UHGV virus genome: UHGV-0361364 | DNA: 12,261 bases | Origin: a virus | Reading direction: 5' to 3' (one strand) | In this document: positions 6,807 through 12,261 of the stretch, piece after piece | Numbering within the stretch: position 1 is the stretch's first letter | Layout of the letters: each line of letters starts with the position of its first letter | Translations under genes and position numbers: made by a program | Notes under the pieces: model-generated | What the model was told of the DNA's origin: nothing | Seen by the model: only the letters and a program-made list of their open reading frames with translations | Database searches by the model: none

Positions 6807-6830
6807 AATAAAAAACCCACCGAAGTGGGC
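6807..6830 (-). terminator. Intrinsic terminator (minus strand) after the 112-aa gene
   Basis: Stem CCCAC (6816-6820) / GTGGG (6825-6829) with a UUCG tetraloop on the minus strand, followed by UUUUUUAUU. The gene's TAG stop is at 6830-6832. Confidence 0.6.
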
Positions 6831-7168
6831 TATGACCATTTTTTATTTGGATTTCGTTGGTGAGCGTGATTAACAACTCTGTTCATTACATCCTCATATT
6901 TTTCATCTTCAATTTTTTCGACATCGCGAGGAAATGGTGTTGCTAATGCTTTGTCAACTTTGTCCATTGGGTCTTCATTAATCTTATATTCAGGGCCATC
7001 ATCTATAGCATTAAATCCAGGTGTTACACCGTTTTTTAATGCATATGCTATCCTTTTTTCCCATCTCGCTATTCTCCTCCTGTCTCGAGATGTAAGACCT
7101 CTATCAGATACTTTTCTGTTTTGTCCGCGGTCAGGATTAACATAAATAGTCTTTTTCACCATAAGCAT
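6830..7168 (-). CDS. Hypothetical basic hydrophilic protein, 112 aa, at the position lambda uses for sieB
   Basis: First ATG at 7168 lies 2 nt after the N stop (possible translational coupling; weak SD). A second ATG is at 7162. Product MLMVKKTIYVNPDRGQNRKVSDRGLTSRDRRRIARWEKRIAYALKNG... has an Arg-rich N-terminus and acidic C-terminal half, with no transmembrane segment, unlike SieB. Confidence 0.5.
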   Translation of the reverse strand: MLMVKKTIYVNPDRGQNRKVSDRGLTSRDRRRIARWEKRIAYALKNGVTPGFNAIDDGPEYKINEDPMDKVDKALATPFPRDVEKIEDEKYEDVMNRVVNHAHQRNPNKKWS

Positions 7169-7170
7169 AC

Positions 7171-7476
7171 TCAATAAGCACCGTACGGTAGTTTACTGTA
7201 CAATTTTATTTTTTGGACTGCATGTATTTTGTTTCCTAATGGGTTTGAATCTTTGTAATAAATACTTCTATTTTTTCGAACGACTTCTTCTTTCTTCTTG
7301 CAGCAAAGGCTTCCTAGCGATGCTGCTTTGTCTGCTCTGACGCAACCAGAGAGCTTTAGCGCAATTTTTCGCGCCAGTGCTTCATTACTGCGTCGCTCGG
7401 CAATAAGTTCTGCTCTGCGAGCTTTGTAGCGGCTTTTTGCCGTACCTTTGGATTCTTTCCAGACAATGGTTACCAT
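7171..7476 (-). CDS. N: N-type transcription antitermination protein (phage-21-like arginine-rich motif)
   Basis: ATG at 7476 preceded by strong SD AAGGAG. The N-terminal arginine-rich motif GTAKSRYKARRAELIAERR matches, as I recall it, the phage 21 N boxB-binding peptide. First gene of the leftward operon downstream of nutL. Confidence 0.8.
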   Translation of the reverse strand: MVTIVWKESKGTAKSRYKARRAELIAERRSNEALARKIALKLSGCVRADKAASLGSLCCKKKEEVVRKNRSIYYKDSNPLGNKIHAVQKIKLYSKLPYGAY

Positions 7477-7586
7477 GATGGTCTCCTTTAAGTGGCTTTG
7501 GCGCATGACGCGTCGAGGTGCTTATCTTCTCGATCGCTGTCTTGCAGCTGCAATTCGCGCCATCCCCAAAACCACTCAAGTTCTGG

Positions 7587-7627
7587 TCTCAACGGTTAGG
7601 TTGAGAGTCCGTCGATGTTAAAGAGCC
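7587..7627 (-). promoter_or_regulatory. nutL: nutL: boxA-like GGCUCUUUAACA (7616-7627) followed 9 nt later by a boxB-like hairpin with CUAACC loop (7587-7606)
   Basis: Minus-strand reading: GGCTCTTTAACA matches the boxA core GCTCTTTAACA, then stem TCTCAAC / GTTGAGA around loop CTAACC. The loop and spacing are the same as in the nutR candidate while the stems differ. Confidence 0.6.
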
Positions 7628-7673
7628 TGCCAATCTGTTCCGTTTGGCTTCCAGCGTCCTGCTGATGGCTTAA

Positions 7674-7726
7674 ATTTAAGACTTCTTAATTTATTGGCCA
7701 AGTGTATTTTTGAAGAAAACTTAATT
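7674..7726. promoter_or_regulatory. OL operators (P22 c2-type half-sites) overlapping a candidate leftward PL promoter
   Basis: ATTTAAGACTTCTTAATT (7674-7691) and TTTGAAGAAAACTTAATT (7709-7726) fit the P22 operator pattern ATTTAAG-N4-CTTAAAT. On the minus strand a candidate -35 TTGGCC, a 16-nt spacer and -10 TTAAAT overlap the first operator. Promoter hexamers are tentative. Confidence 0.55.
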
Positions 7727-7767
7727 TTATGGGCGTGAATTTAGTTTGTCTTTGATTTTTAACGGGA

Positions 7768-7790
7768 AATAAAAAAGGGGCGAAAGCCCC
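7768..7790 (-). terminator. Intrinsic terminator of the c2 transcript
   Basis: Stem GGGGC (7777-7781) / GCCCC (7786-7790) with a 4-nt loop, followed on the minus strand by UUUUUUUAUUU, immediately 3' of the c2 TAA stop at 7791-7793. Confidence 0.7.
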
Positions 7791-8441
7791 TTAAGGAAGG
7801 TTTGCTAGCTTGGCATCAACGACAACGCCAATGATTTTACAGTTCCCATTGATTTCAATCATTGGGTATTGTGGATTGAGTGGTTTCAGGAATTTTCTAC
7901 CGGCATCAATAACTAACTTTTTGAATGTCGCCTCGTTTTCTCCTTCAAGTTTGGCGACTACCAACTTTCCATTACGTGGTTCGACTTCTGGGTCGACGAG
8001 AATAATCATCCCCTCAGGAATACTCAGTCCTGCCGGGGCAGTCATTGAATCGCCTTTAACGTCGAGCCAAAAAGAGTCTTCAGAACAATCTACCGTTGTG
8101 TCGTACCAGTTATCTATTGCACGCCTATGATATGGCTCTACAGCTTCCATCCAACATCCTGCGCTTACCCAACTAATTAGAGGATACGAACCTCTTGGAT
8201 CATGCCTGCTGTGATAGGCAATGTTTGAAAGACTATCCTCTCCTTTCAACAGGTAATCAGGGGAGCACTGCAAAGCCTTGGCTAAGGCCAATAGGTTTTC
8301 GCCATTGGGCTCAGTTTCAGATCGCTCCCATTGGGAAATAGCAACATTAGACACGCCAACCATCTTGCCAAGGGCAGCCTGCCTAATCTTGAGTTCTTTT
8401 CTGCGAGCGCGAATACGCTCACCCATCAGTTGTGTATTCAT
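7791..8441 (-). CDS. c2: P22 C2-type prophage repressor (HTH DNA-binding domain plus LexA-like S24 autopeptidase domain)
   Basis: 216-aa product is near-identical over its length to my recollection of phage P22 C2 (MNTQLMGERIRARRK...QAALGKMVGVSNVAISQWERSE HTH; GDSM serine motif; C-terminal VVVDAKLANLP). The ATG at 8441 abuts OR3, which suggests a near-leaderless PRM transcript. Confidence 0.95.
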   Translation of the reverse strand: MNTQLMGERIRARRKELKIRQAALGKMVGVSNVAISQWERSETEPNGENLLALAKALQCSPDYLLKGEDSLSNIAYHSRHDPRGSYPLISWVSAGCWMEAVEPYHRRAIDNWYDTTVDCSEDSFWLDVKGDSMTAPAGLSIPEGMIILVDPEVEPRNGKLVVAKLEGENEATFKKLVIDAGRKFLKPLNPQYPMIEINGNCKIIGVVVDAKLANLP

Positions 8442-8507
8442 AGTTAAGACATCTTAAATAAACTTGACTTAAGATTCCTTTGGTGGATAATTTAAGTGTT
8501 CTTTAAT
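8442..8507. promoter_or_regulatory. OR region: three P22-type operators with rightward PR; PRM not mapped
   Basis: OR3 AGTTAAGACATCTTAAAT (8442-8459), OR2 ACTTAAGATTCCTTTGGT (8467-8484), OR1 ATTTAAGTGTTCTTTAAT (8490-8507). PR -35 TTGACT (8464-8469), 16-nt spacer, -10 GATAAT (8486-8491). cro SD GGAG at 8511-8514. Confidence 0.8.
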
Positions 8508-8521
8508 TTCGGAGCGAGTCT

Positions 8522-8707
8522 ATGTACAAAAAAGATGTTATTGACCACTTCGGAACCCAGCGTGCTGTTGCTAAAGCACTAGGCATTAGCGATGCAGCAG
8601 TCTCTCAGTGGAAAGAAGTTATCCCAGAGAAAGACGCCTATCGATTGGAAATCGTTACAGCTGGCGCCCTGAAGTATCAAGAAAGTGCTTACCGCCAAGC
8701 GGCATAA
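8522..8707 (+). CDS. cro: Cro repressor, P22 type
   Basis: 61-aa product MYKKDVIDHFGTQRAVAKALGISDAAVSQWKEVIPEKDAYRLEIVTAGALKYQESAYRQAA matches recalled P22 Cro almost exactly. Divergent from c2 across the OR region. Confidence 0.95.
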   Translation: MYKKDVIDHFGTQRAVAKALGISDAAVSQWKEVIPEKDAYRLEIVTAGALKYQESAYRQAA

Positions 8708-8713
8708 GCAAAT

Positions 8714-8755
8714 TGCTCTTTAACAGTTCTGGCCTTTCACCTCTAACCGGGTGAG
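8714..8755 (+). promoter_or_regulatory. nutR: nutR: boxA TGCTCTTTAACA (8714-8725) followed 10 nt later by a boxB-like hairpin with CUAACC loop (8736-8755)
   Basis: boxA is identical to the rrn/lambdoid boxA consensus over 12 nt. Hairpin UUCACCU-CUAACC-GGGUGAG, which matches my recollection of the phage 21 boxB. Same loop as the nutL hairpin on a different stem. Confidence 0.65.
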
Positions 8756-8822
8756 CAAACATCAGCGGCAAATCCATTGGGTGTGCCGCTATAACTCAAT
8801 ATCAATATAGGAAAATTAACAA

Positions 8823-9119
8823 ATGGCACAAGCAAGCTACAGCAAGCCAACACAGCGAGAAATTGATCGCGCTGAAACTGATTTACTCATCAACCTGTCA
8901 ACGCTTACCCAGCGCGGTCTGGCAAAGATGATTGGCTGTCATGAATCGAAGATAAGCAGAACGGACTGGAGATTTATTGCTTCTGTCTTGTGTGCTTTCG
9001 GAATGGCATCAGACATCAGTCCGATTAGCAGGGCTTTTAAGTATGCGCTTGATGAAATCACAAAGAAAAAATCCCCGGCCGCCACCGAGGATTTTAAGCA
9101 AATTGATATGCAATTCTGA
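8823..9119 (+). CDS. cII: CII-like transcriptional activator (P22 C1 / lambda CII homolog)
   Basis: 98-aa product. The C-terminus KKKSPAATEDFKQIDMQF parallels lambda CII NKKRPAATERSEQIQMEF, and the central HTH region is similar. SD AGGAAA 8 nt upstream. Confidence 0.85.
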   Translation: MAQASYSKPTQREIDRAETDLLINLSTLTQRGLAKMIGCHESKISRTDWRFIASVLCAFGMASDISPISRAFKYALDEITKKKSPAATEDFKQIDMQF

Positions 9120-11551: not shown

Positions 11552-12261
11552 TGCACAGAAAACCCCCAGCTAGGCTGGGGGTTCCGGAAAGCTTTCAGCT
11601 TTGAGCCAGTTATTAAAACCCCTTTTGATTTGTTAAAACACCTTGCGGTCTGGCAACTGCAAGTGTCAAACAAGAAATCAAAAGGGGGTCCCAATGGGGA
11701 ACGAAAAGAGCTTAGCGCACACCCGATGGAACTGTAAATATCACATAGTTTTTGCGCCAAAATACCGAAGACAAGTGTTCTACAGAGAGAAGCGTAGAGC
11801 AATAGGCAGTATTTTGAGAAAGCTGTGTGAGTGGAAAAGCGTACGGATTCTGGAAGCAGAGTGCTGCGCAGATCATATCCATATGCTTGTGGAAATCCCA
11901 CCCAAAATGAGCGTATCCGGCTTTATGGGATATCTGAAAGGGAAAAGCAGTCTGATGCTTTACGAGCAGTTTGGTGATTTGAAATTCAAATACAGGAACA
12001 GAGAGTTCTGGTGCAGAGGGTACTACGTCGATACGGTGGGTAAGAACACGGCGAAGATACAGGATTACATAAAGCACCAGCTTGAAGAGGATAAAATGGG
12101 AGAGCAGTTATCGATTCCCTATCCGGGCAGCCCGTTTACGGGCCGTAAGTAACGAAGTTGGATGCAAATGTCAGATCGTGTGCGCCTGTTAGGGCGCGGC
12201 TGGTAAGAGAGCCTTATAGGCGCATTTGAAAAACCTCCGGCTATGCCGGAGGATATTTATT
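11552..12261 (+). mobile_element. IS200-family insertion sequence (IS200/IS605 group, single Y1 transposase, no terminal inverted repeats); boundaries approximate, right end at or near the window edge
   Basis: Contains tnpA plus the structures recalled for IS200: left-end hairpin CCCCCAG / CTGGGGG (11563-11581); a long-range pairing CCCCTTTTG (11619-11627) with CAAAAGGGG (11679-11687) that sequesters the tnpA SD; right-end hairpin CCTCCGGC-TAT-GCCGGAGG (12234-12252) followed by ATATTTATT. Span of about 707 bp fits IS200. Confidence 0.7.
11694..12152 (+). CDS. tnpA: IS200 transposase TnpA (HUH / Y1 single-strand transposase)
   Basis: 152-aa product MGNEKSLAHTRWNCKYHIVFAPKYRRQVF...ADHIHMLVEIPPK...RGYYVDTVGKNT carries the HxH (HIH) motif and catalytic Tyr region, and closely matches recalled IS200 TnpA. 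Start at the ATG at 11694 after SD AAAGGGGG; the ORF-track upstream extension was rejected. Confidence 0.9.
   Translation: MGNEKSLAHTRWNCKYHIVFAPKYRRQVFYREKRRAIGSILRKLCEWKSVRILEAECCADHIHMLVEIPPKMSVSGFMGYLKGKSSLMLYEQFGDLKFKYRNREFWCRGYYVDTVGKNTAKIQDYIKHQLEEDKMGEQLSIPYPGSPFTGRK

Follow-up and report, generated by a model that had tools for sequence, protein, structure and literature searches.

In phage lambda, the arginine-rich motif (ARM) at the N-terminus of the N protein binds a boxB hairpin carrying a GAAAA pentaloop next to boxA, and the nut sites built from these two elements follow PL and cro. For phage 21, the complex of the phi21 N peptide with boxB RNA has reportedly been solved (PDB 1NYB), and its hexaloop is said to be recognised differently from lambda boxB. 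It is also said to be a classical result that the operators of phage 21 and P22 are related, while the N/nut determinants of the two phages are reportedly not conserved.

The stretch analysed here (the window) comprises 12,261 nt of the virus genome UHGV-0361364, and all positions refer to it. A sequence-only reading had described 7171-8755 as a mosaic, in which a P22-type repressor, cro and operators were combined with a phage-21-type N protein and nut sites. From its close match to known phages, the region is almost certainly imm21, the module for immunity and early regulation of coliphage 21, in a lambdoid prophage. It is by all appearances already known and ordinary, namely the classical, well-studied imm21 and N/nut antitermination region in a functional-looking form.

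Repressor, Cro, operators and promoters

Positions 7254-8755 match Escherichia phage 21 (OL657228), as well as the imm21 regions present in lambda imm21 (OM418625) and DE3 (EU078592), in a single ungapped BLAST piece at 98.7% identity, and only 4 mismatches to phage 21 have been found over 7331-9055. BLAST aligns the complete 7171-8755 with mEp235 and Kapi1 at 99.5% identity. Among 5,426 complete genomes of E. coli, 438 cover at least 80% of the same 1.6 kb. Every element that had been described was found in its place (Table 1).

Table 1. Features of the control region and its neighbours, in order of position.
Feature	Position	Strand	Description
Intrinsic terminator just after nun	6814..6831	-	on the PL transcript
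nun	6830..7162	-	110 aa, transcription arrest factor of the HK022 type; lies 8 nt past the stop codon of N
N antiterminator gene	7171..7476	-	101 aa; ORF end at 7171
nutL boxB hairpin	7587..7606	-	UCUCAAC / CUAACC / GUUGAGA
boxA of nutL (GCTCTTTAAC)	7617..7626	-	10 nt upstream of boxB stem; annotated boxA-L in phage 21
PL promoter	7673..7701	-	-35 TTGGCC 7696-7701, -10 TAAATT 7673-7678, start about 7666
OL1	7674-7691		repressor operator, base-identical to phage 21
OL2	7709-7726		repressor operator, base-identical to phage 21
OL3	7738-7755		repressor operator, base-identical to phage 21
Intrinsic terminator after repressor gene	7775..7792	-	terminator annotated at same place in phage 21
cI/c2 repressor	7791..8441	-	216 aa; HTH_3 and Peptidase_S24 (Pfam), LexA-like
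Three OR operators	8442-8459, 8467-8485, 8490-8507		overlap PR; identical to phage 21 annotated sites
PR promoter	-35 at 8464, -10 ending 8491		TTGACT-16-GATAAT, 10/12 matches
cro	8522..8707	+	61 aa, P22_Cro family; Pfam PF14549, E = 5.7e-28
boxA of nutR (GCTCTTTAAC)	8715..8724	+	11 nt upstream of boxB stem; identical to phage 21 boxA-R
nutR boxB hairpin	8736..8755	+	UUCACCU / CUAACC / GGGUGAG
cII activator gene	8823..9119	+	Pfam Phage_CII, E = 2.7e-33

The P22-like character that had been claimed for repressor, Cro and operators has been borne out, with 94% identity to P22 C2 and 98% to P22 Cro, and by sequence the three belong to the P22 family (the P22/21 C2-Cro family). Both proteins are nevertheless 100% identical to those of phage 21, the repressor also to that of mEp235, and OL1-3, the three OR sites, boxA-L and boxA-R as well as nutL and nutR are base-identical to the phage 21 annotation. 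Since the whole block 7331-9055 matches phage 21, the apparent mosaic is phage 21's own build, and the combination is its native arrangement. As OL657228, lambda imm21, DE3, HK629 and mEp235 all agree on this arrangement of c2, cro and operators with N and nut, it is unlikely that the phage 21 reference is a laboratory hybrid.

The PL hexamers have been assigned from the sequence together with the pL start annotated in OL657228. The -35 hexamer carries a private A-to-G substitution relative to the TTGACC of phage 21, mEp235 and P22, which may weaken PL.

N protein and nut sites

The likely start of N is the ATG at 7476 (MVTIVWKESKGTAKSRYKARRAELIAERR...), which has been preferred over a longer ORF from 7506 (MRQSHLKETIM..., the mEpX1 annotation) because AAGGAG stands 6 nt upstream and the same start is annotated in phage 21 and mEp235. 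The protein matches PHROG 271 ('anti-termination protein N-like', E = 4.6e-31), while the Pfam N_peptide model scores 18.4 bits, below its cutoff of 27.9. The first 58 residues, among them the ARM (residues ~8-29), do not differ from phage 21 N, and the phi21 N peptide in chain A of 1NYB has the same sequence as residues 8-29. Identity is 35% to P22 gp24 and about 28% to lambda N. The ARM is accordingly of the phage 21 type and not that of P22 gene 24, as had been proposed. The overall identity to phage 21 N is 80%, as the C-terminal third (from about residue 59) represents a different allele, common to mEp235, mEpX1 and Kapi1, in which only scattered residues (IYY, QKIKL) of the phage 21 and lambda proteins are kept. 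Judging from lambda N, this third would be the part that binds RNA polymerase. Identity with the characterised phage 21 protein is therefore incomplete.

Each of the two hairpins is preceded by the exact boxA 10-mer, and both fall within early transcripts, with nutL lying between PL and N and nutR between cro and cII. Both have been found to be stable upon folding, at -7.3 kcal/mol each, with z = -5.8 for nutL (0/200 shuffles as stable) and z = -2.6 for nutR (3/200). The nutR stem forms 6 bp in RNAfold; the seventh, terminal pair is U.G, as is the pair closing the loop. nutL agrees in every base with the stem_loop of that name in the OL657228 annotation, and 8737-8754 is identical to the one annotated 'nutR'. 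The description of two boxB elements that share the CUAACC loop but not the stem holds at both sites: 6 of the 7 positions differ between the 5' arms and pairing is kept. The spacing from boxA, which had been called identical, is only nearly so (Table 1). Alignment of the nut regions likewise separates the boxB elements, identical to those of phage 21, from the P22 ones with their different stems and GACAA-type loops. N and both hairpins are thus assigned by sequence to phage 21 specificity, not to the P22 gene 24 type.

Among the 21-type nut sites in IMG/VR, three stem versions have been found, that of nutL, that of nutR and a variant of the latter (GCUCACCU/GGGUAAGC) in which one pair is a C.A mismatch. 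Because there are only these three, the covariation evidence is drawn mainly from the comparison of nutL with nutR and from the joint variation of ARM and boxB between phages. The remaining IMG/VR matches are chance occurrences without a stem. As a separate observation, several distinct immunity modules have 21-type nut sites at their flanks.

From the established knowledge of lambda and phage 21, on which the RNA binding, the Nus dependence and the choice of terminators are modelled here, the following course would be expected. The LexA-like repressor would keep the divergent PL and PR off by occupying OL1-3 and OR1-3, and Cro would be made from PR. Transcripts from both promoters would each carry a nut site, with boxA (GCUCUUUAAC) followed 10-11 nt later by the boxB with its CUAACC hexaloop. 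N, as the first gene of the PL transcript, would supply the protein whose N-terminal arginine-rich helix binds boxB and which, together with host NusA, NusB, NusE and NusG on boxA, would render RNA polymerase resistant to termination. Such a polymerase would read through downstream terminators, e.g., rightward in the tR1 region, ahead of cII, and leftward at the terminator behind nun, for which a role as a target of N-dependent readthrough is plausible.

Alternative readings, integrity and the N tail

A chance origin of both hairpins, combined with an N-like ORF that is not an antiterminator, has practically no probability. Such a reading could draw on nutR being only modestly more stable than its shuffles when folded in a 34-nt context (z = -1.0), on the sub-threshold Pfam score of N, and on Rfam, in which none of 4,227 families, searched over the whole window at gathering thresholds, matched at the nut sites (the sole match in the window, STnc490, lies in an IS200 copy). 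The composite GCTCTTTAAC-N15-20-CTAACC, however, occurs 2 times in the window and not once in 200 shuffles, a non-random recurrence of exact boxA and loop at the right spacing, and the two sites stand downstream of PL and of cro, where nut sites are expected. Their identity to the annotated sites of phage 21, that of the ARM to the peptide in the N-boxB complex of 1NYB, and the co-variation of ARM and boxB across phages speak further against chance. The claim that the boxB hairpins are real RNA elements rather than accidental palindromes has thus been upheld by fold stability, composite pattern and phage 21 annotation. A recent recombination, which would have joined a P22-type immC (c2, cro and operators) to phage-21-type N and nut sites in a new hybrid, is very improbable as well. 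Homology to P22 is indeed confined to 7612-8722, at 83.6% nucleotide identity, and stops just past boxA on either side and before boxB, so that the module boundaries relative to P22 fall between boxA and boxB. The c2-cro-operator block is, however, clearly less similar to P22 than to phage 21 (100% in protein and ~99.8% in DNA), and it runs on into the N/nut sequences without a break, just as in phage 21; an identical cI and cro at the same spacing are found in 31 of the 47 IMG/VR contigs with both 21-type nut sites, among the matches listed. The boundaries relative to P22 are therefore old and belong to phage 21 itself, not to the window. According to the alignments, the actual joints with respect to phage 21 are inside N (~7254-7330) and near the end of cII, where sliding identity to phage 21 places the end of the identical block near 9055, inside the 3' end of the gene.

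It is somewhat less remote, though still unlikely, that the module has been identified correctly and belongs to a defective or decaying prophage in which N/nut antitermination no longer operates. The private substitution in the PL -35 hexamer would fit such decay, as would an IS200 copy inserted ~3 kb rightward, just after the helicase gene, which raises the possibility that the prophage is not intact in all its parts; furthermore, at most ~66% of the 12-kb window is found together in any single phage record or complete E. coli genome. Low coverage by single records is, however, what one normally sees with mosaic lambdoid prophages. No recognised ORF is interrupted by the IS200 copy, and every ORF of the module is intact, with near-identical counterparts in deposited phages. 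Among the latter, mEp235, Kapi1 and mEpX1, which carry the same N allele and were deposited with named E. coli host strains, are taken by us to be propagating phages.

The product of nun shares 108 of 110 residues with HK022 Nun and matches PDB 6ALG_N (E = 2.5e-70) and PHROG 5632; the ARM peptide of 1HJI is identical in it. The gene is a neighbour, standing outside the imm21 block. The alternative C-terminal tail of N is linked to this HK022-type nun, as in mEp235, mEpX1 and Kapi1, and contains sequence annotated as nun's own promoter, which suggests that the tail may be constrained both as coding sequence and as promoter. HK022 is without N, yet it keeps ~115 nt of exactly this tail upstream of nun, and the retention suggests an origin from an N-plus-Nun phage: the put-using HK022 lineage may have arisen when nutL and the 5' part of N were replaced. 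That N is a natural hybrid of a phage 21 ARM and central segment with a nun-linked tail beginning within ~7254-7330, taken together with these ideas on HK022 and on the dual constraint, is put forward tentatively and is rather doubtful as a whole. In the literature searched, with the older HK022 papers outside its reach, no description of a hybrid origin of N tail and nun was found. This linkage is the sole aspect that might merit a short follow-up. Beyond that, the region matters little except for its correct annotation, the fitting label being imm21-type with N/nut of phi21 specificity. By sequence, immunity to both phage 21 and lambda imm21 would be predicted for the host, and N would be predicted to act only on boxB sites with a CUAACC loop.

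Comparison with known phages

Relative to phage 21, lambda imm21 and DE3, the window shares cI and Cro at 100%, base-identical operators and nut sites, and the first 58 residues of N, with cII nearly identical to that of phage 21 up to ~9055. It differs from phage 21 in the last third of N, in the gene after N (nun here, ral in phage 21) and in the rightward replication genes, which encode a replication-O-like initiator and a DnaB-type helicase here and are lambda O/P-like in phage 21. The N tail allele recurs in the deposited phages mEp235 (JQ182731) and mEpX1 (JQ182727), in both of which the same tandem of N and then nun is annotated. N of mEp235 is 99% identical to that of the window, from which mEp235 differs at 8 points, including the PL -35 base. 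In mEpX1, N tail and nun are identical to those of the window, and an unrelated gene occupies the repressor position beside a window-type N and nutL. vB_EcoP_Kapi1 (MT813197) matches the nun/N stretch at 97.4%.

The immC region and gene 24 of P22 (BK000583) share the gene order (24/N, nutL, PL/OL, c2, OR/PR, cro, nutR, c1/cII), the same boxA, and closely similar operators and promoters, at the protein identities given above for c2 and cro. P22 differs in its gene 24 protein with another ARM and in boxB, homology ending just after boxA on both sides. The lambdoid podoviruses CUS-3, N7 and Gally likewise carry a c2-cro of the P22/21 family (83-87% nucleotide identity) and the same boxA, and they share the central N segment ARKIALKLSGCVRADKAASLGSL with the window; they differ by a third ARM and by a third boxB with a CCCGC stem. 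Lambda itself shows the same N/nut architecture and presumed mechanism. Among phages that have this c2-cro family and boxA in common, ARM and boxB thus co-vary as three specificity pairs, GNAKTRRHERRRKLAIER with GACAA-type loops in P22, DNARNRRRARRQAQREQ with a CGAAAU loop in CUS-3, N7 and Gally, and GTAKSRYKARRAELIAERR with the CUAACC loop in phage 21 and the window, a textbook case of lambdoid module shuffling.

Phage 21 identity of the early control region

The window has been found to carry, at 7171-8755, a standard lambdoid early-control layout, the features of which are collected in the table. Among phage genomes searched by megablast, 7254-8755 gave a single ungapped match, 98.7% identical to Escherichia phage 21 (OL657228), lambda imm21, lambda h434 imm21 and DE3, and mEp235 and Kapi1 have shown 99.5% identity across the full 7171-8755. 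Compared base by base, phage 21 has 19 mismatches, 15 of which lie within 7258-7330, and just four have been counted from 7331 to about 9055, near which identity collapses in the cII 3' end. The repressor and Cro are both 100% identical to the phage 21 proteins, compared with 94% to P22 C2 and 98% to P22 Cro, and OL1-3, the three OR sites, boxA-L, boxA-R, nutL and nutR, as annotated in OL657228, show no base difference in the window. Residues 1-58 of N are identical in phage 21 N, and residues 8-29 match exactly the phi21 N peptide (22 residues) in PDB 1NYB, the solved N-peptide/boxB complex (Cilley and Williamson, 2003). Because repressor, Cro, operators, boxA/boxB sites, N residues 1-58 and the 1NYB peptide share this phage 21 identity, we identify 7171-8755 by its sequence as the imm21 module, i.e., the immunity/early-control module of coliphage 21. 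The imm21 finding is already known, and the module is common: of 5,426 complete E. coli genomes, 438 contain at least 80% of its 1,585 bases, and identity reaches 99% or more in 96 records.

Features of the control region and its flanks (window coordinates)
Feature	Position	Strand or direction	Remark
nun	6830-7162	minus	8 nt beyond N stop codon
N-like gene	7171-7476	minus	
boxA + hairpin (nutL)	hairpin 7587-7606	minus	UCUCAAC-CUAACC-GUUGAGA; between N and left operator/promoter region
Left operator/promoter region			AT-rich; between nutL and repressor
PL	-35 7696-7701, -10 7673-7678		start near 7666
Repressor, 216 aa	7791-8441	leftward	LexA-like; Pfam HTH_3 + Peptidase_S24
Second operator/promoter region			between repressor and cro
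PR	8464-8491		TTGACT-16-GATAAT
Cro, 61 aa	8522-8707	rightward	Pfam P22_Cro
Second boxA + hairpin (nutR)	hairpin 8736-8755		UUCACCU-CUAACC-GGGUGAG; after cro
cII	8823-9119	rightward	Pfam Phage_CII

The PL -35 box, on the minus strand, reads TTGGCC in the window versus TTGACC in phage 21, mEp235 and P22, a private substitution at 7698 that could weaken PL; position 7705 carries another private change. An IS200-type element (11561-12152, +) directly follows the DnaB-like helicase gene, with a leader (11561-11684) matching Rfam STnc490 at 146 bits and a transposase ORF at 11643-12152. Neither the -35 change nor the IS200 copy alters the imm21 identification. A strong intrinsic terminator at 9068-9095 (-), antisense to the cII 3' end, lies where lambda and P22 have their oop RNA terminator. 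At the left end of the window, a tyrosine integrase (182-1360, +) and a small excisionase-like ORF (1341-1532, -) have been found, and since matches to the window in several E. coli genomes adjoin sbcB, this neighbourhood suggests the attachment region.

The nut sites and the relationship to P22

Both hairpins carry the CUAACC loop on differing stems, as the sequence-only reading had proposed, and folding has borne this out, with -7.3 kcal/mol for each boxB 20-mer and z-scores against shuffles of -5.8 (nutL) and -2.6 (nutR). The 5' arms differ at six of seven positions with pairing maintained, the nutR stem including two G.U pairs. The exact 10-mer GCTCTTTAAC (boxA) stands upstream of both hairpins, and GCTCTTTAAC-N15-20-CTAACC is present at two places in the window but at none in 200 shuffles. 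Of the loop and boxA spacing described as identical, the loop has held, and the spacing is only near-identical, with 10 nt (nutL) and 11 nt (nutR) between boxA and stem. The annotated phage 21 nutL coincides exactly with the tabulated hairpin, and the nutR stem-loop lies one base inside it at both ends.

The same reading had taken the region for a mosaic, combining P22-type c2, cro and operators with phage-21-type N and nut sites. P22 homology (83.6% nucleotide identity by megablast) is limited to 7612-8722, where the alignment continues through boxA and stops just before boxB, at left and right alike. P22 has its own boxB hairpins, of the GCGCU-GACAA-AGCGC and CCGC-CGACAA-GCGG types, whereas the window loops are CUAACC, and its gene-24 protein is just 35% identical to the window N, so that N and nut specificity follow phage 21 and not P22, as had been claimed. 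Old module boundaries therefore separate the P22/21-family c2-cro block from the N/boxB specificity determinants, but these boundaries belong to phage 21 as such and do not set the window apart. The supposed hybrid is the native phage 21 arrangement; its features are real and were correctly described, with small corrections to the boxA-stem distance and to the start of N, which is placed at 7476 instead of 7506. Poteete et al. (1980) reportedly described the relationship of the phage 21 and P22 operators, and an N/nut comparison is said to be that of Franklin (1985).

The joint inside N, nun and the proposed regulation

The left joint lies within N, at 7254-7330, and further left the sequence is the mEp235/HK022 allele, not that of phage 21. 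From about residue 59 the N tail (…CCKKKEEVVRKNRSIYYKDSNPLGNKIHAVQKIKLYSKLPYGAY) is unlike that of phage 21 N, which is lambda-like. The hybrid N is also present in mEp235 (99% identical) and in mEpX1, where the gene in the place of the repressor is unrelated, and the Kapi1 DNA match over the N region is 97-99%. The nun product is identical to HK022 Nun at 108 of 110 residues, its arginine-rich motif (ARM) is identical to the PDB 1HJI peptide, and N followed by nun is annotated in mEp235 and mEpX1 as well. The HK022 match to the window extends from 6813 to 7288; HK022 is without N, yet retains about 115 nt of exactly this N 3' end upstream of nun (window 7174-7288, -; 1051-1176 in the HK022 sequence, L127). 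Phage O276 has an annotated nun promoter in a nun-putL-pL stretch labelled HK022-type; this promoter maps to 7195-7200 (-10) and 7218-7223 (-35) within the N 3' end, where window and HK022 are identical in sequence. Since nun adjoins N with near-identity to HK022 Nun and the 1HJI motif, the prophage is predicted to encode a phi21-specific antiterminator together with a transcription arrest (exclusion) factor specific for lambda boxB. Nun binds lambda boxB and arrests transcription on lambda DNA, and its action on the prophage's own CUAACC sites would not be expected.

By analogy with established lambda and phage 21 biology, repressor bound at OL and OR would silence PL and PR, and derepression would give a PL transcript on which nutL precedes N and a PR transcript on which nutR follows cro. 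The CUAACC hairpin would be bound by the N ARM and boxA by NusB/NusE, and the joining of NusA and NusG would yield a termination-resistant polymerase. Candidate readthrough targets are, on the left, a strong intrinsic terminator after nun (6814-6831, -) and, on the right, the tR1 region preceding cII, annotated in OL657228.

Specificity pairs in other phages

In a scan of IMG/VR contigs for the boxA...CTAACC pattern, both 21-type nut sites have been found in at least 47 contigs. Among these 47 as listed, 31 share the nut-site spacing of the window (1087-1090 bp) and have the identical cI and cro; the other 16 show spacings of 1243-3126 bp and repressors that are 34-40% identical to the window's or without similarity. 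Non-imm21 immunity regions flanked by 21-type nutL and nutR are seen in contigs L009, L024, L033, L046, L048, L072, L098, L105, L106, L113, L116 and L123. Given the varied repressors between 21-type nut sites, N/nut specificity has therefore been shuffled against several immunity modules. Real 21-type boxB occurs in three stem versions only among the matches listed, and within-class covariation is therefore limited. The nutR boxB variant of L009, L014, L021, L032, L062 and L105, GCUCACCU-CUAACC-GGGUAAGC, contains an internal C.A mismatch, yet two additional pairs at the stem bottom.

CUS-3, N7 and Gally share with the window the P22/21-family c2-cro, boxA and the central N segment (ARKIALKLSGCVRADKAASLGSL), but differ in a third ARM (DNARNRRRARRQAQREQ) together with a third boxB, of loop CGAAAU, at both nut sites, a comparison that adds evidence for ARM and boxB as a predicted specificity pair. 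The right joint relative to phage 21 lies near 9055 in cII; beyond it phage 21 has lambda O/P-like replication genes, and the window an initiator of replication-O-like type followed by a DnaB-type helicase.
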